DNA of 63,965 nucleotides, the filler included, from an uncultured bacterium (GTDB lineage: Bacteria; Hinthialibacterota; Hinthialibacteria; Hinthialibacterales; Hinthialibacteraceae): NCBI GenBank assembly GCA_964449065.1. It is 3 parts of 3 records of this genome, joined end to end, with 100 filler letters (N's around TTAATTAATTAA, not from the genome) between each part and the next. Parts side by side here need not be neighbours in the genome. Positions count along the whole stretch, not along the records: positions 50,090 to 63,965 come from CAYVAZ010000124.1; 2 more parts are not named here. One strand, given 5' to 3'. Each line of letters starts with the position of its first letter. The first letter of the stretch is position 1. A program made the translations under genes and the position numbers. This document shows, piece by piece, positions 21,824 to 63,965 of this stretch. Under the pieces are notes generated by a model, which made no database searches, was not told the origin of the DNA, and saw only the letters and a list, made by a program, of their open reading frames with translations.

Positions 21824-21925
21824 ATTTTTTTTCAGGTAAGCGAGTCAGCCGTAACGGCCCTCCTCAAGATTCAGGCTTCTCTCGGCACAATGAAGCCGAC
21901 CGGGTATGTTCATACTGATTTTTTT

Positions 21926-21955
21926 ATTCGCGTTCATTCGCGTGTATTCGCGGTT
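21926..21955 (+). repeat. Solo right arm of the GxxExxY-associated unit (family F)
   Basis: ATTCGCGTTC-ATTCGCGTGT-ATTCGCGGTT, 29/30 identical to 62859-62888. Confidence 0.9.
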
Positions 21956-25254: not shown

Positions 25255-25354
25255 NNNNNNNNNNNNNNNNNNNNNNNNNNNNNNNNNNNNNNNNNNNNTT
25301 AATTAATTAANNNNNNNNNNNNNNNNNNNNNNNNNNNNNNNNNNNNNNNNNNNN
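25255..25354. other. Artificial contig linker (N44-TTAATTAATTAA-N44)
   Basis: N runs around a six-frame-stop spacer; same structure at 49990-50089. Confidence 0.97.
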
Positions 25355-49989: not shown

Positions 49990-50089
49990 NNNNNNNNNNN
50001 NNNNNNNNNNNNNNNNNNNNNNNNNNNNNNNNNTTAATTAATTAANNNNNNNNNNNNNNNNNNNNNNNNNNNNNNNNNNNNNNNNNNNN
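49990..50089. other. Artificial contig linker (N44-TTAATTAATTAA-N44)
   Basis: Same structure as 25255-25354. Confidence 0.97.
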
Positions 50090-57726: not shown

Positions 57727-58371
57727 TTGATCATGAACAAGATTACTTCTACATACCATAAGCGGTCAACCCGAAGCGGATTTTCTTTGGTCGAATTAAT
57801 CGTGACCATTGGGATCATCGGTATATTGGCTGTGATTGCGATTCCCAACTTTAAGAATGCCAAAGTGCGGACGGATATAGTTAAAACCTACTCAAACTTT
57901 CGGGCGCTTTCGTATTCCATCTCGCATTATCAAATCGACCAAGGCAAACTGATTCCATACAACCCCATCCGGGGGAGAAGTTTTTTGTATTTAACCAGCC
58001 CGATCATTTATTTATCGGACTTAGAAGTGGCGAGCGACCCCTTTTCAAAGACGGTGGTGAACCAAGAGGGTGCGGTTGTGAAGAATCCCAACGCGTATTT
58101 TGATTATATTCCATTTCGCAACCATTATTTATCCGCGTTTTTTGAACAGGACCGGGCTAAGCATCGAAGCGATCCTCTCCTGGTAAACATTGCCGGAAAA
58201 CAATTGCGCAATCCCGGATTCGCGCTACAGTCGATCGGGCCTTCCAAGCACTTCGGACCACGAACCTTTTTGATCGATAAAACCTACCAAATTCCCAACG
58301 TGTATTCACCATCCAACGGCTTGTATTCGACCGGTTCATTGATCGCCATTGACGGCGCGATTTACAACTAA
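57727..58371 (+). CDS. Prepilin-type N-terminal cleavage/methylation protein (pseudopilin-like)
   Basis: GFSLVELIVTIGIIGILAVIAIPNF; LTSPIIYL..DPF; SIGP; YSPSNG. Confidence 0.88.
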   Translation: MIMNKITSTYHKRSTRSGFSLVELIVTIGIIGILAVIAIPNFKNAKVRTDIVKTYSNFRALSYSISHYQIDQGKLIPYNPIRGRSFLYLTSPIIYLSDLEVASDPFSKTVVNQEGAVVKNPNAYFDYIPFRNHYLSAFFEQDRAKHRSDPLLVNIAGKQLRNPGFALQSIGPSKHFGPRTFLIDKTYQIPNVYSPSNGLYSTGSLIAIDGAIYN

Positions 58372-58404
58372 TCTCACAATCCTTCATTGCTATTCTTATC
58401 TTCT

Positions 58405-58989
58405 TCAAGGCATGGGGAAATCCACTTTGGGCCGTCCGGGGACATAGCGCCGGATCACACCGATGCTATATACACCATTAGATAAATCGTAGGGATGCCA
58501 GTCCAATGTGCTTTGCCCTTTGTAGGATGTGGTGGGGCCGTGGCCAAAAATCAGGCCGATGGATTGTTGCCGCGGGCCGAAATCGGGATTGATGGAAGAA
58601 TCGAAATAGCGGGGAGTGAGTCCGCCGTGATAGCGCAGGTCCCATGGGTCCCAGTGGTATTGCCTTTTGGAAAAGCCGATGCGCGAGTTGTCGCCGAAAA
58701 GGCTTTTGGCTTCGGCAATATCTTGAAACGGGTCATATAAAAAGCCGTTGAGGTATGCGACCGGCGTGGTGAGCCACCAGTTTTGATTGAGGTCGTGAGA
58801 ATGCGGCGGGTTGTCGTTGGCATCGAACATATATTGCAGGATGGCTTGTTCCAGCGTTTTTAAATCCGCCTGAGACCGGGCGACTTTCGCCCGTACCTGC
58901 GCGCTTAAAAAGTTCGGTACCGCAATGGCTGCCAGAATCCCGATAATGGCGACGACAATCAGCAATTCAATTAAAGTAAACCCCTTCAT
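58405..58989 (-). CDS. Prepilin-type N-terminal cleavage/methylation protein (pseudopilin-like)
   Basis: GFTLIELLIVVAIIGILAAIAVPNF; LTTPVAYL..DPF; GHGP; YDLSNG. Confidence 0.9.
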   Translation of the reverse strand: MKGFTLIELLIVVAIIGILAAIAVPNFLSAQVRAKVARSQADLKTLEQAILQYMFDANDNPPHSHDLNQNWWLTTPVAYLNGFLYDPFQDIAEAKSLFGDNSRIGFSKRQYHWDPWDLRYHGGLTPRYFDSSINPDFGPRQQSIGLIFGHGPTTSYKGQSTLDWHPYDLSNGVYSIGVIRRYVPGRPKVDFPMP

Positions 58990-59251
58990 GGTTATGCCTC
59001 CCCTATTGTAAACGTATTGTAATTGTAAAAAGAGTTAATCATGTTATAACATATTTTCGATAGTTTGGATAATGTTTTTGTAATAGGTCAGCCGTTTGAA
59101 GAGAGATTTCCCCTCCCAAGCCTGCTAAGGTTTACCCACAACTATTAACAGTGTGTGGCCCTGTGTTATGTCAGAGTGCCCATTTGGGGCGTTTTCGTTA
59201 TTTATAGCGGTGTTGCCAACAATACGTTCGGATTGGAATGAAGCGTACTTC

Positions 59252-59277
59252 CGGCTCGGCGGGAGCCTTGCCCTCCC
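59252..59277 (+). repeat. REP-like repeat family A
   Basis: CGGCTCGGCGGGAGCCTTGCCCTCCC, preceded by ACGTTCGGATTGG as at 25355. Confidence 0.85.
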
Positions 59278-59325
59278 AAGGGCTCGTGCTTGATTAAGGA
59301 TTGAATGTATTCATCCGCTTTTTTA

Positions 59326-59355
59326 AACCGCGAATAAACGCGAATGCACGCCAAT
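59326..59355 (+). repeat. Solo left arm of the GxxExxY-associated unit (family F)
   Basis: AACCGCGAAT-AAACGCGAAT-GCACGCCAAT, same 3x10-bp design as 62743-62772. Confidence 0.85.
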
Positions 59356-59426
59356 AAAGGCTCGGTTTATTTTTTCTCAAAGCGTAGGGATAGTTTGGCT
59401 CTTAATTTTATGTGAATCCGTACTTC

Positions 59427-59452
59427 TGGCTCGGCGGGAGCCTCGCCCTCCC
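59427..59452 (+). repeat. REP-like repeat family A
   Basis: TGGCTCGGCGGGAGCCTCGCCCTCCC. Confidence 0.85.
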
Positions 59453-59518
59453 AAAAAACATTGTTTGGACAACTTTTTTCGAGTACAGTATCAACGATTA
59501 AATGACGTGGGTCGATCC

Positions 59519-59590
59519 CCCCTAGCCCCCCTTAACAAGGGGGGAAACAACGAATAGCCAGCCGTCATTTTTTGACTGACAGAGTACTAG
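59519..59590. repeat. Palindromic repeat family B, copy 2
   Basis: Near-identical to 1-71; both end at GAGTACTAG. Confidence 0.85.
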
Positions 59591-59697
59591 ACCGGCGAAT
59601 CGTAAAAAATCTTCTGTCAGAGAAACTTTCAGCATAACTTGTCATTTGTTTATCCGTTGGGTATACATCTTTGTGAAACATACCGAAATAACACAGT

Positions 59698-61242
59698 ATG
59701 GAGAAAATCATGGGCTTTAAAGAGGGGAAGAGCAGTCTGAAAATCCTGGCGATTGCTTTATTAGCACTGCTTATTGCATGGTGTCTGCTGCAACTGCCAG
59801 CGTGGAAAGATCAATGGCTGCATGGTTTTTATACCAATCAGCAGGTCTTGAAAGCGGTACAGACGGCGAATGATATCAATCCGTTTGTAACGGAAGACCA
59901 CAGTTTAGGCAGCCATATCCGGTTTCAAAATCTACTGCGGCAAGCCGGCGCCGAACAGCGGCTTTTGGAACACTATCAACAAACCGCCGAAAATTATCCC
60001 CAAGATGCCAATGTGCAGGCCTATTATGCCCGTGTATTAGAAGATGAAGAAAAGAAAGTCAACATATTAGAAAAAGCGCGGGAACTGAATCCGAATGATC
60101 CGGCGGTCTTATTTGTTTTGGCGGAACATCAATTACAAAACGGTCAAGCTAAAGAAACCCTAAAACTCATCCGGAATATGGACAGCGGTACATGGTATAT
60201 TCATGCGCTACGTGCAAAGGCTTATTCTCAAACCGGAGAGATTGAACAAGCGCGGAGTGAATATAGGAAAGCCATTCAGGCAGAGAATTCCCCTGCATCT
60301 GTTTTATTGTCTTACGCGGAATTTTTGCTGGAGAGTGGGCAGGAAGAAGCGGAAAGCCCCTTTAAAAAGTGGAGCGAAGACGAGCGAATCGAAGAGCCAT
60401 TGGCTTATGCCTATCATGCCTATTTTAGCGGGCAGGATATCCAGACTTTCGCGGAGGATCTGCCGAGCGGGGTGGGCTACGATCCCAAGGCGCTGCTGAT
60501 CTTAGCCAAGGCCGCCTTGCGCCGGGATGAAGTGAATACGGCGGAACGGCTGCTGCTGCGGGCAGAGCAATTTGCCCCGGAAAACCCCATGATTCGCTTT
60601 TACCGCGGTTTGGCGGCATTGCGGCAAGGAAACGAAGTGATGGCGGATACATTGCTGCATCCAAAAGAAAACTTGTCGGAGAAAGAACACGCGGAACTCG
60701 GTACGGCTTTATGGAAAGAAGGCCAAAAAGAGTTTGCCGTGAAGCATTTTCAACACGCGGGTGTTCATACACCGCCGAATCCGGAAGTAACAGTGGAACT
60801 GGTGAAGTATTATTTGGATCAAAATAAGTGTGAACATGCGGGGACCATTGTAGACAGAAATTTGAATCTATTTTTGAATCAGGGTGAAACCTCTTTGGCA
60901 ATCGGTCAGCAGCTCGAGGCATGTGGAGAATTCGAAAACGCGGCTGAATTATATGGCAGTGTATTAGATCATGATTTTCACAACAAAGAGGCCCGTGATT
61001 TACTTGCCAATGTGTATGTACAGCTGGGGGAAAAGAACCGCGCGATTCTCTTGTATGATGTTTATTTAAAAAATAACGCGAATGATGCCCATAGTTTTGC
61101 AAAAGTCGCCAAGATTCACAGGCATTTTGGGGATCATAAAAACGCCCGCGAGATTTTGGATTATGTGTTGAACAATCCGGATAAGTTTGAAGATATTTCC
61201 CTGGCAAAACGGCTGGACAAAGAGTGGAAAGAGAAAAGCTAA
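59698..61242 (+). CDS. Membrane-anchored tetratricopeptide-repeat protein
   Basis: N-terminal TM helix; repeated A..L.P and G...A..Y..A helical TPR patterns. Confidence 0.85.
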   Translation: MEKIMGFKEGKSSLKILAIALLALLIAWCLLQLPAWKDQWLHGFYTNQQVLKAVQTANDINPFVTEDHSLGSHIRFQNLLRQAGAEQRLLEHYQQTAENYPQDANVQAYYARVLEDEEKKVNILEKARELNPNDPAVLFVLAEHQLQNGQAKETLKLIRNMDSGTWYIHALRAKAYSQTGEIEQARSEYRKAIQAENSPASVLLSYAEFLLESGQEEAESPFKKWSEDERIEEPLAYAYHAYFSGQDIQTFAEDLPSGVGYDPKALLILAKAALRRDEVNTAERLLLRAEQFAPENPMIRFYRGLAALRQGNEVMADTLLHPKENLSEKEHAELGTALWKEGQKEFAVKHFQHAGVHTPPNPEVTVELVKYYLDQNKCEHAGTIVDRNLNLFLNQGETSLAIGQQLEACGEFENAAELYGSVLDHDFHNKEARDLLANVYVQLGEKNRAILLYDVYLKNNANDAHSFAKVAKIHRHFGDHKNAREILDYVLNNPDKFEDISLAKRLDKEWKEKS

Positions 61243-61429
61243 AGAAACTTCGTTTTATCTCAAAGATGCTCCTATTATTGTGTTTATACGGATTCAAATA
61301 AATTCTGTGTGATTCCTCCATAAAAGGGGAGCATCGGCTTCCAGCCGGTACCGCACACCGCATATTATTTCATTGAAGCGGTTTTACATGCCCAAGACAT
61401 TTTCGGGCAAAGGCCGGATCATTATGGCG

Positions 61430-61457
61430 TTGACAAAAGCTTATTCCCCGTAATAAT
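61430..61457 (+). promoter_or_regulatory. Possible sigma70 promoter of carA
   Basis: Perfect TTGACA at 61430 followed by TAATAAT at 61451-61457. Confidence 0.45.
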
Positions 61458-61575
61458 CAAACAGTATATATGATGCAAATGTATGAATTGTTGTAACTCA
61501 TTCAAATCGTATGGGTTAGATGTCTTTGCAGTTGGATGATCCTAAAAAAACTCTTTGTGAACCTATCAAAACAAT

Positions 61576-62739
61576 ATGGCCGAATTTTTCTTAAAACTAA
61601 CTCCACGCAATCCCGCCACACTCGTATTGGAAGACGGAACACTCTATCACGGACAATCGTTCGGGGCTGCCGGCGAAACGGGAGGAGAAGTGGTTTTTAA
61701 CACTTCCATGACCGGATATCAGGAAATCCTGACAGATCCCTCGTATTCCGGACAGCTGGTGACGATGACTTATCCCCTTATCGGAAACTATGGCGTCAAT
61801 GATGAAGATATGGAATCGACCCGGATACAAGCGGCGGGATTCATCATCAAAGAATTATCGCTGATCCCCAGCAACTGGCGCTGCAAGACTTCGTTGGAAG
61901 AGTGGATGAAGATACAAGGTGTGGTCGGCATTTTGGGTATTGATACCCGTGCTTTGGTACGCAAACTGCGGAACGTTGGGGTTATGCGTGGTGTGATTAC
62001 CACCGCCGATTGCAGTGAAGCGGAACTGAAAGAAAAGGTGGAAAAGATTCCGTCGATGGCCGGTCTGGATTTGGTGAAGACAAACACCTGCGAGAAGGTT
62101 TACGGGTGGGATGACCGGCTGCATGTATATCATCAATCACCCAAGTTTAAACGAAACAACGATGAACCGCTTAAGGTTACCGCGTTTGATTATGGGGTAA
62201 AACATAATATTTTGAGGCATTTAACCGAACGCGGCTGCCAAGTCAAGATTGTCCCCGCCGGTACCAGCGCGGAAGAAATTCTGGCGGATGATCCCGACGG
62301 TATTTTTATGTCAAACGGGCCGGGCGACCCGGAACCGGTTGATTACGCGGTAGAGACGGTCAAAAAATTATTGGGGAAAAAGCCGATCTTTGGCATCTGC
62401 TTAGGGCATCAAATTTTGGGGTTAGCCCTTGGGGGCAAAACATACAAATTGAAGTTTGGACACCGGGGCGCGAATCAACCCGTAAAAGAATTGGCGACCG
62501 GAAAAGTCGATATTACCTCACAGAATCACGGGTTCGCGATTGATTCAAAAAGTTTACCCGGCAATGTGAAAGAATCCTACATCAACCTGAATGATAACAC
62601 ATGCCAGGGGCTGGAATGCGAAGAGATGAAATGCTTTTCGGTGCAGTATCACCCGGAAGCATCGCCGGGGCCGCACGACGCCGCGCATCACTTTGACCGC
62701 TTCTTGGACCTGATGCTGGCGAATCGAAAAAAGAATTAA
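61576..62739 (+). CDS. carA: Carbamoyl-phosphate synthase small subunit
   Basis: GEVVFNTSMTGYQE, SNGPGDP, GICLGHQ, QYHPEASPGPHD. Confidence 0.98.
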   Translation: MAEFFLKLTPRNPATLVLEDGTLYHGQSFGAAGETGGEVVFNTSMTGYQEILTDPSYSGQLVTMTYPLIGNYGVNDEDMESTRIQAAGFIIKELSLIPSNWRCKTSLEEWMKIQGVVGILGIDTRALVRKLRNVGVMRGVITTADCSEAELKEKVEKIPSMAGLDLVKTNTCEKVYGWDDRLHVYHQSPKFKRNNDEPLKVTAFDYGVKHNILRHLTERGCQVKIVPAGTSAEEILADDPDGIFMSNGPGDPEPVDYAVETVKKLLGKKPIFGICLGHQILGLALGGKTYKLKFGHRGANQPVKELATGKVDITSQNHGFAIDSKSLPGNVKESYINLNDNTCQGLECEEMKCFSVQYHPEASPGPHDAAHHFDRFLDLMLANRKKN

Positions 62740-62742
62740 TGC

Positions 62743-62888
62743 AACCGCGAATGAACGCCAATACACGCGAATAAAGACAAGGCGTTCCGTTGATGAAAAG
62801 AAAGAGTATTTCATAAGCCGGTAGGTTTGATAAGAAGAACAGCGCGAGACAACCAAATATTCGCGTTCATTCGCGTGAATTCGCGGTT
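62743..62888. repeat. 146-bp unit with inverted 3x10-bp terminal arms, copy 1
   Basis: Left arm AACCGCGAAT-GAACGCCAAT-ACACGCGAAT, 86-bp core, right arm ATTCGCGTTC-ATTCGCGTGA-ATTCGCGGTT. Confidence 0.95.
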
Positions 62889-62912
62889 AATTTTTTATGG
62901 TGAGCACTACGA

Positions 62913-63003
62913 ATGCAAAGATCTTATAACAATCTTGATAGAGAGTTGTTGTTAAAAGAGGATGATCATCGGCGCAGCAATGAAGGTATCCAATGTTTTA
63001 GGG
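62913..63003 (+). pseudogene. Truncated 5' copy of the GxxExxY gene (8-bp internal deletion)
   Basis: Aligns to 63206-63304, then switches to a carA tail copy. Confidence 0.9.
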
Positions 63004-63032
63004 TGATGCTGGCGAATCGAAAAAAGAATTAA
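63004..63032 (+). repeat. Exact duplicate of the carA 3' end including the stop codon
   Basis: TGATGCTGGCGAATCGAAAAAAGAATTAA = 62711-62739. Confidence 0.93.
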
Positions 63033-63035
63033 TGC

Positions 63036-63181
63036 AACCGCGAATGAACGCCAATACACGCGAATAAAGACAAGGCGTTCCGTTGATGAAAAGAAAGAGT
63101 ATTTCATAAGCCGGTAGGTTTGATAAGAAGAACAGCGCGAGACAACCAAATATTCGCGTTCATTCGCGTGAATTCGCGGTT
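63036..63181. repeat. 146-bp unit, copy 2
   Basis: Identical to copy 1 by eye, offset 293 bp. Confidence 0.95.
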
Positions 63182-63205
63182 AATTTTTTTTGGTGAGCAC
63201 TACGA

Positions 63206-63610
63206 ATGCGAAGATCTTATAACAATCTTGATAGAGAGTTGTTGTTAAAAGAGGAAGTGTTTTTGATTATCGGTGCTGCAATGGAGGTATCCAATATTTT
63301 AGGGTGTGGCTTTCTAGAAGCGGTTTATCAAGAAGCACTGGCTGTGGAATTTAGAGAAAGAGATATACCATTTGAGGAACAGAAACATATACAAATCCAT
63401 TACAAAGGAAAAGAATTACAAAAAGAATATATTGCTGATTTCGTTTGCTTTCAACAAATTATTCTTGAAATTAAAGCAATCAGAAGGATATCGGAGATAG
63501 AAGAGGCTCAAATATTGAATTACTTAAAGGCGACAAAAATGCCTGTTGGATTAATCATCAATTTTGGGGATAGCCATTTAGAATGGCAGAGATTTGTTTG
63601 TACAAAATAA
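63206..63610 (+). CDS. GxxExxY protein (PD-(D/E)XK nuclease superfamily)
   Basis: LGCGFLEAVYQEAL motif, ADF.....IILEIKA (D..ExK), AQILNYLK, GLIINFG. Confidence 0.93.
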   Translation: MRRSYNNLDRELLLKEEVFLIIGAAMEVSNILGCGFLEAVYQEALAVEFRERDIPFEEQKHIQIHYKGKELQKEYIADFVCFQQIILEIKAIRRISEIEEAQILNYLKATKMPVGLIINFGDSHLEWQRFVCTK

Positions 63611-63614
63611 ATGC

Positions 63615-63760
63615 AACCGCGAATGAACGCCAATACACGCGAATAAAGACAAGGCGTTTCGTTGATGAAAAAGAAGAGTATTTCATAAGCCGGTAGGATT
63701 GATAAGAAGAACAGCGTGAGACAACCAAATATTCGCGTTCATTCGCGTGAATTCGCGGTT
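63615..63760. repeat. 146-bp unit, copy 3
   Basis: Arms identical to copies 1 and 2; about 5 substitutions, all in the core. Confidence 0.95.
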
Positions 63761-63784
63761 AAATTTATTTGGTGAGCACTACGA

Positions 63785-63886
63785 ATGCAAAGATATTATA
63801 ACAATCTTGATAGGAAGTTATTGTTAAAAGAGGAAGTGTTTTTGATTATCGGTGTTGCAATGGAGGTATCCAATGCTTTAGGGTAA
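63785..63886 (+). pseudogene. Second truncated 5' copy of the GxxExxY gene
   Basis: MQRYYNNLDRKLLLKEEVFLIIGVAMEVSNALG*, same breakpoint as the first fragment. Confidence 0.9.
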
Positions 63887-63912
63887 TGCTGGAGAATCGT
63901 AAACAGAATTAA
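63884..63912 (+). repeat. Diverged duplicate of the carA 3' end
   Basis: TAATGCTGGAGAATCGTAAACAGAATTAA, 4 mismatches to 62711-62739. Confidence 0.88.
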
Positions 63913-63915
63913 TGC

Positions 63916-63965
63916 AACCGCGAATGAACGCCAATACACGCGAATAAAGACAAGGCGTTTCGTTG
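63916..63965. repeat. 146-bp unit, copy 4 (cut by the window end)
   Basis: Left arm plus start of the core, carrying the copy-3 variant GGCGTTTCG. Confidence 0.9.

Follow-up and report, generated by a model that had tools for sequence, protein, structure and literature searches.

A GxxExxY gene with flanking repeat arms: an apparently undescribed nuclease-and-repeat family in bacteria

The GxxExxY array behind carA

The window, i.e., the whole stretch of 63,965 nucleotides analysed here, consists of three joined contigs from an 87%-complete, 5.2-Mb genome of an uncultured member of the Hinthialibacteraceae. The array described below lies at the very end of contig C124, and the end of the window is the end of that contig. 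It follows the host gene carA, which encodes the carbamoyl-phosphate synthase small subunit (positions 61576–62739, plus strand; TIGR01368, 510 bits) and whose last 29 nt are duplicated within the array. A 146-bp unit (U1, positions 62743–62888) starts 4 bp after the carA stop codon and is composed of a left arm (62743–62773), an 84-bp spacer, and an inverted right arm (62858–62888). Behind it lie a 5′ fragment of a GxxExxY gene (62913–63003, plus strand), which carries an 8-bp deletion and stops where codon 33 ends in the intact gene, a 29-nt copy of the carA tail identical to carA (63004–63032, plus strand), and a second unit (U2, 63036–63181) identical to U1. The intact GxxExxY gene (63206–63610, plus strand), which matches TIGR04256 and PF13366, encodes 134 amino acids with a predicted PD-(D/E)XK nuclease fold, and a third unit (U3, 63615–63760), with 5 substitutions in 146 positions relative to U1 and U2, starts 5 bp after its stop codon. 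The array ends with a second GxxExxY 5′ fragment with the same breakpoint as the first (63785–63883, plus strand), a diverged carA-tail copy with four substitutions (63884–63912, plus strand), and a fourth unit (U4, 63916–63965), which is cut by the contig end and has the variant of U3 in the part present. The three GxxExxY 5′ regions differ pairwise by 7–13 substitutions. The order of the parts, the two offsets from stop codons, and the differences among the copies all agree with the initial annotation of this DNA.

Each 31-bp arm contains three boxes (core CGCGAAT) at 10-bp spacing; the boxes are conserved and the 2-nt linkers between them are variable, even in arms that stand alone. The complete unit folded better than shuffled sequences, both as DNA (z −2.5) and as RNA (z −2.85; 1 of 200 shuffles was as good). 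The four single arms that were folded did no better than their shuffles (z −0.8 to −1.2), i.e., they formed no significant hairpins alone, and an Rfam search of positions 59000–63965 gave no match.

The initial annotation took the gene plus the 146-bp unit to be a mobile module; however, the 84-bp spacer of the unit was found only at this locus, and solely the 31-bp arm is dispersed. The arm matched 85 places in the genome (at most 7 mismatches in 31), including 77 solo arms, and singlets far outnumber doublets, with 3 full doublets and one intact GxxExxY gene in the genome. The reversed arm, used as a control, matched none, which excludes chance as the source of the matches. Two solo arms of the same family lie within the window, at positions 59326–59356 (plus strand; C124:9237) and 21925–21955 (minus strand; contig C26). 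Based on crude ORF calls, a called gene lay no more than 60 nt from the outer end of the arm in 21 of 62 cases and from the inner end in 4 of 47 (p 0.002). Twelve arms follow stop codons and nine precede start codons; the proposal that insertion occurs just behind the stops of housekeeping genes therefore holds as far as arm outer ends abut genes, but not in its restriction to stops. Among the 77 solo arms, 43 have flanks that belong to a single shared cluster, 33 lie next to REP-like repeats, and the flanks of 26 are unique; three matches to the Y1 transposase domain (PF01797) were also found in the genome, all on other contigs. The shared flanks and the REP-like neighbours suggest that part of the arm amplification may be hitch-hiking. 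The generic arm pattern missed CACAGAG-type arms, ten of which were recovered with a looser pattern, and three of these ten second-family arms face an arm of the main family 60–87 bp away, forming hybrid doublets.

As the initial annotation had proposed, the region downstream of carA was compared with relatives. In all 16 family relatives fetched (of 19 searched), carB starts 7–163 nt after carA, and the site is thus empty in all of them, indicating that the junction was filled in the present lineage. The array thus fills a junction that is normally tight. The assembly of this genome lacks the first half of carB and has the second half on another contig. Truncation at the end of codon 33 is common to the two GxxExxY fragments, and both join carA at one and the same base, with 2-nt microhomology, which argues for one tandem duplication that was copied later and against repeated insertion behind a stop codon, as the array had earlier been read. 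The array is best explained, from these sequence comparisons, by one 293-bp tandem duplication plus unequal recombination. A cassette of the form U–gene–U would first have filled the carA–carB gap, a 293-bp tandem duplication would then have fused the gene at codon 33 with carA at a position 29 nt short of its end, and unequal exchange between U copies would later have multiplied and mixed the pieces. In other words, the local array is for the most part a by-product of recombination and gives a snapshot of such exchange among arms. The carA tail was also considered as a target-site duplication; this was rejected, since the breakpoint is common to the two fragments and each tail copy accompanies its fragment. 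U1 and U2 are exactly identical, yet the fragments adjoining them differ by 6% (7 substitutions plus the 8-bp deletion; p 0.001), which is compatible with gene conversion or with collapse by the assembler.

The array was further checked against public contigs. Contigs of run X1, which is possibly the source sample itself, cover the stretches from carA to the tail, from U to the intact gene, and from the intact gene across the truncation point; one of them covers the junction of the second fragment and its tail (63825–63934) with no differences. Run X2, from another sample of the same study, supplied the 3′ half of the intact gene and a piece with U3 plus fragment. Most junction types of the array are therefore supported by public contigs of two samples, but copy number and order are not: among the listed X1 and X2 contig pieces, none spans the array, and the first fragment/tail junction is absent. 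The local array may in part be an assembly product, in which strain variants of a simpler carA–U–gene–U locus were chained together. The contig ends inside U4, the contigs of run X1 include a U variant that differs from U1 at 3 positions and none of them carries the U1 allele at position 62787, and collapse could have given the identity of U1 and U2 beside diverged fragments. We nevertheless consider this explanation improbable, because the fragment/tail junction occurs in an X1 contig without differences and there are three distinct gene 5′ sequences; a pure artefact is unlikely, as the initial annotation had argued. Moreover, the explanation touches only the copy number, not the family-wide association of gene and repeat.

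The GxxExxY protein and its arms across bacteria

The intact GxxExxY protein, the only intact copy found in this incomplete genome, scored well above the curated cut-offs of TIGR04256 (148 bits; cut-off 35) and PF13366 (142 bits; cut-off 22). Residues E38, D78, E88, and K90 and the motif Q102-x3-Y106 are present; D78, K90, and Y41 occur without exception in the 104 family proteins, and E38 and E88 in 103 of them. The best Foldseek match of the predicted structure (pLDDT 93) was Cas4 SSO0001 (E 4e-4, TM 0.56), which in VIA gave a Z of 7.5 with an rmsd of 4.5 over 102 aligned residues. In a wide structure search, restriction enzymes, Cas4, and uncharacterised PD-(D/E)XK proteins tied at Z 7–7.8, the best being the restriction enzyme BpuSI (7.8) and none reaching 8. 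When the sequences of solved structures were searched with the family alignment, there were 0 matches at E 1, and a search of the ESM Atlas returned GxxExxY clusters only. The structural scores are thus of middling height; the conserved D78, E88, and K90 and the matches in fold to PD-(D/E)XK enzymes place the protein in that nuclease superfamily. In both sequence and model, GxxExxY is a Cas4/RecB-like PD-(D/E)XK nuclease with a predicted intact active site. It resembles the Cas4/RecB family (Cas4 SSO0001, AddAB, MGME1) in fold and in having D-x9-E-x-K and QxxxY motifs, the latter being a label of the RecB family, but it has only 134 residues, shares 14–17% identity, and is matched equally well by restriction enzymes. 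No Fe-S cluster cysteines are conserved in the family alignment, and no cas genes were seen beside GxxExxY at this locus. Profile searches found no transposase domain in the protein, PF13366 being the sole Pfam match.

GxxExxY genes were found in 23 of 41 genomes searched. Loci were collected from this genome and its relatives (30 loci) and from a scan of species genomes (the best 80 of at least 591); the 98 scored loci are this set minus the locus of the window itself, an outlier, and 10 loci whose flanks were short. At 84 of the 98 loci, one flank carries an inverted repeat of the other; the controls gave 5 among 257 shifted windows and 3 among 161 neighbouring genes, and the enrichment anticipated in the initial annotation is clearly seen. 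At many loci, the gene has an arm on either side, with boxes at a period of 9 or 10 bp. A strict periodicity score was reached on either side at 48 of the 98 loci (11 of 257 controls), the low count reflecting the variable linkers. The cassette has the same orientation as both neighbours at 60 of 87 loci (crude ORF calls), and the neighbouring genes are functionally unrelated. In the genomes compared, operon junctions are patchily occupied by the cassette.

On the protein tree, which is unrooted and has branch support mostly under 95, the distribution of arm types requires 31 changes, compared with a mean of 59 and a minimum of 52 in 500 shuffles (90 labelled of 104 rows). Individual protein clades that share a single arm type extend over many phyla, and the protein of the window groups not with those of its own family but with proteins that have the same arm and come from a delta proteobacterium, Lentisphaerota, and an unclassified bacterium. 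Judging from these sequences, arm type follows protein clade across phyla; however, kin share arm labels on a tree, so the clustering is not proof of co-evolution.

The arm pattern of this genome has 65 matches here, 1, 1, and 3 in three of 40 relatives, and none in the others; the arm is therefore amplified in this genome and nearly absent from its kin. The same pattern was counted in 10 distant genomes with close proteins, picked from the 12 best protein matches after the flanks had been seen (L084 and L087 being left out), and gave 1, 11, 13, 2, 2, 2, 1, 9, 27, and 0 copies, i.e., the arm was present in nine of the ten, with 9–27 copies in four and 0–2 in six. A second arm pattern peaks at 68 copies in G013, which carries a gene of the matching clade; a third has 70 copies in G006, 48 in G016, and 26 in G009, all with a gene of the matching clade; and a fourth has 0–3 copies in all 41 genomes. 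Since these three other patterns were drawn from gene flanks of the same genomes, the comparison of counts is partly circular and no proof of co-evolution either. In the 18 genomes in which no gene was found, arm counts were at most 8 (8 in G021, 6 in G014, and 5 in G019). Carrying a GxxExxY gene does not ensure arm amplification.

Occupancy was also compared within Flavobacterium, using the 30 best loci among 151 genomes, a selection in which gene carriers are over-represented. Among 16 loci with rfbD and rfbB, GxxExxY lay between these two genes in two, one of which is the query's own genome; one junction later, the gene was found in 8 of the 30 loci, two of them broken or partial, and four empty sites had arm-like relics by eye. 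Other sites are held across species, e.g., the one after gmd in L126, L135, and L138. In two genomes with two GxxExxY copies in one operon, the copies were 74% (protein) and 80% (DNA) alike, and six other within-genome pairs were 34–42% alike. Near-identical copies within a genome were not seen among the compared pairs, and this divergence gives no sign of recent jumping. By eye, no target-site duplication was visible at the 14 loci, out of 21, for which the two ends could be located, these being old insertions compared without empty sites from the same species. GxxExxY occurred in 8 of 72,556 plasmid records and was not found in 50,697 phage records, both collections favouring other host groups. 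The picture is one of slow, local relocation and occasional transfer, not of bursts like those of insertion sequences.

Proposed cut-and-repair spread of the arms and its alternatives

The nuclease-and-repeat family is real and apparently undescribed. A literature search with the terms GxxExxY, PDDEXK_3, PF13366, and TIGR04256, covering text outside subscription journals and supplements, found no description of a repeat-armed cassette. In the accessible parts of the papers found, GxxExxY receives passing mentions (PMC8934634, PMC3424549), including a table row in which the family is listed as “Unknown” with multiple transfers (PMC3424549).

We put the chances at about even that, in this widespread cassette, the GxxExxY nuclease recognises and cuts its own arm type and that host repair then copies, moves, or deletes DNA bounded by arms. 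The enzyme would bind the phased boxes on double-stranded DNA and cut near the arm, and the arms would be copied by host recombination, spreading by recombination or gene conversion instead of strand transfer. PD-(D/E)XK enzymes hydrolyse DNA, so the spread of arms would most simply need host repair. Cutting and repair by a cognate nuclease would account for the clade-specific arms, the solo arms, the hybrids, the local arrays, and the lack of target duplications; mobilisation of the arms by the enzyme is inferred. Free-standing and intron-encoded homing endonucleases of the PD-(D/E)XK type, such as I-Ssp6803I, offer a parallel in that a small nuclease would rely on cleavage followed by host repair for its spread and would leave no target duplication. 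However, homing uses one conserved site, whereas the cassettes occupy many unrelated junctions and bring their own repeats.

The bolder proposal, which is possible but doubtful, is that the cassette represents a new class of mobile DNA, in which a PD-(D/E)XK enzyme of about 130 residues recognises the helically phased boxes of its own arms and, alone or with host repair, moves and shuffles the DNA between arms from one operon junction to another in many phyla. If true, no smaller self-mobilising nuclease-repeat system would be known, and this one would work independently of DDE, HUH, serine, and tyrosine enzymes. The cut-and-repair model would give a large family without an established function a testable role, for which the clade-specific arms of about 30 bp provide ready substrate–enzyme pairs, with non-cognate pairs as controls. 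The activity would also explain abundant intergenic repeats in uncultured bacteria, which number 65–70 in some genomes, as well as the variability of gene junctions within operons for housekeeping functions and surface polysaccharides, and a very small nuclease whose specificity varies with clade could serve as a tool.

The main rival to the cut-and-repair model is that the gene serves the host, e.g., in repair or defence, and that the arms are binding or expression signals travelling with it, which spread passively via REP/RAYT-driven composite repeats, gene conversion, and the decay of old cassettes. Over half of the solo arms belong to composite repeats that they share, 33 of the 77 have a REP-like sequence next to them, and Y1 transposase genes are present in the genome. 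The common orientation of cassette and neighbours (by crude ORF calls), the sites held across species such as the one after gmd, and the rarity on plasmids and absence from the phage records searched are also in its favour. In contrast, the 26 solo arms with unique flanks, the functionally unrelated neighbouring genes, and the restriction of high arm counts to genomes with a gene of the matching clade speak against it, and we regard it as rather unlikely.

The analogy with REP/RAYT systems drawn in the initial annotation holds for the layout but not for the enzyme, the hairpins, or the mode of inheritance. In the accessible text of one study, each repeat type has one RAYT gene flanked by its own repeats and many dispersed copies; REPs occur as singlets and as doublets (REPINs) with conserved ends and a variable middle; divergent paralogues each have their own repeat; and inheritance is almost exclusively vertical (10.1101/2022.05.22.493013). 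The cassette likewise has repeats flanking a single-copy enzyme gene and many dispersed copies, and it shares with these systems the singlets, the doublets in which the ends are conserved and the middle varies, and the divergent paralogues with a repeat of their own. It differs in that its enzyme is a PD-(D/E)XK protein (PF13366) and not a Y1 HUH transposase (PF01797), its arms are direct 9–10-bp repeats without significant lone hairpins whereas REPs are hairpin palindromes, and its singlets far outnumber doublets in this genome. Furthermore, the GxxExxY tree mixes phyla, the nearest proteins coming from other phyla, unlike the near-exclusively vertical descent that the same text gives for RAYTs.

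Alternatively, the cassette could be a true insertion sequence with a tiny new transposase that performs both excision and strand transfer, the arms being terminal inverted repeats and U a MITE. Inverted ends surround a single gene at the 84 loci noted above, many with one arm on each side, there are short gene-less doublets, and the cassette has spread across phyla. Phased boxes of this kind also resemble the ends to which transposases bind. MITEs are described, in the accessible part of one source, as short gene-less doublets under 200 bp (PMC3184786). The cassette, however, has no known transposase domain, no near-identical gene copies, and no target-site duplication visible by eye at loci with both ends found; its ends are periodic and imperfect, U occurs at this locus only, it is nearly absent from plasmids, and the fold matches are hydrolytic nucleases. 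We consider this reading quite improbable.

It is very improbable that the arms act as RNA, forming a long stem in the operon transcript that either undergoes processing in the manner of an rRNA intervening sequence or modulates expression downstream: U does fold better than its shuffles as RNA, cassettes are co-oriented with operons, and right arms end in weak terminator-like stems (5 found against 2.8 expected), but left–right mismatches have no sense-strand G-U bias (217 against 223 over 85 loci; in 21 anchored pairs, 33 against 21, p 0.13, beside 57 transversions), 77 arms have no partner, and the three hybrid doublets combine families that are not complementary. Selection on an RNA stem was rejected for the lack of G-U bias, and promoter and terminator counts are near chance. 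None of the samples listed for the locus was of RNA. The 23S rRNA intervening sequences, in which a four-helix-bundle gene lies inside a stem-forming inverted repeat, share with the cassette a small gene in such a repeat; the cassette differs in lying between protein genes, in encoding another protein, and in having neither an Rfam match nor a sense-strand pairing bias.

In the relative G006, a GxxExxY cassette lies in the gap of a natively split carB. That the cassette itself splits carB was rejected, because the split has the same position in 13 of 15 family genomes examined, and 12 of these lack the cassette. The congener G019 has no cassette there, and its 36-nt gap resembles an arm relic; either a loss in G019 or a gain in G006 is possible.

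The split carB gene

Among the family genomes collected (loci L061–L075), carB was split into two genes in 13 of 15, at the same point in each case. The gap between the two halves ranged from 6 to 623 nt in the family relatives, and the cargo that has gathered there included a GxxExxY cassette, clusters of REP sequences, and small ORFs. In the genome of the window, a HicB-like gene and a HicA-like gene lie ahead of the second carB half (contig C192, positions 1–672), the HicA-like gene carrying an early stop; both family names were read from the translations rather than taken from database matches.

REP-like repeats and arm combinations

A repeat of approximately 97 bp lies 5′ of carA (window positions 61284–61386). 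Other contigs carry about 20 nearly identical copies of it, and its REP-like core matched 94 places. A second REP-like repeat, with 134 matches, was observed at about positions 59320–59480 of the window and genome-wide. This second repeat was often located approximately 70 nt inside solo arms, the single dispersed copies of the carA-array arm family, forming composite BIME-like elements. Three matches to a Y1 transposase were found in the same genome. Hybrid doublets, in which an arm of the carA-array family faces an arm of the CACAGAG family, occurred at C14:14571–14657, C34:7931–7994, and C108:1428–1488 of this genome (G000). At L167–L168 (G052 C13:40000–66000), same-direction arms occupied nearly every gap between tandemly arrayed paralogues that look like genes for secreted proteins, and these arms were apparently duplicated together with the intergenic DNA of the array.

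Other GxxExxY loci and window features

At three loci (L081, L082, and L086), the last codons and the stop of the upstream gene come from the left arm. At L124, a 5′-truncated GxxExxY gene lies immediately upstream of an intact one, and the arm types differ. The N runs at window positions 25255–25354 and 49990–50089 mark where three separate contigs were joined; the window does not represent contiguous DNA. At positions 57727–58989, two genes bearing prepilin-type N-methylation motifs converge.
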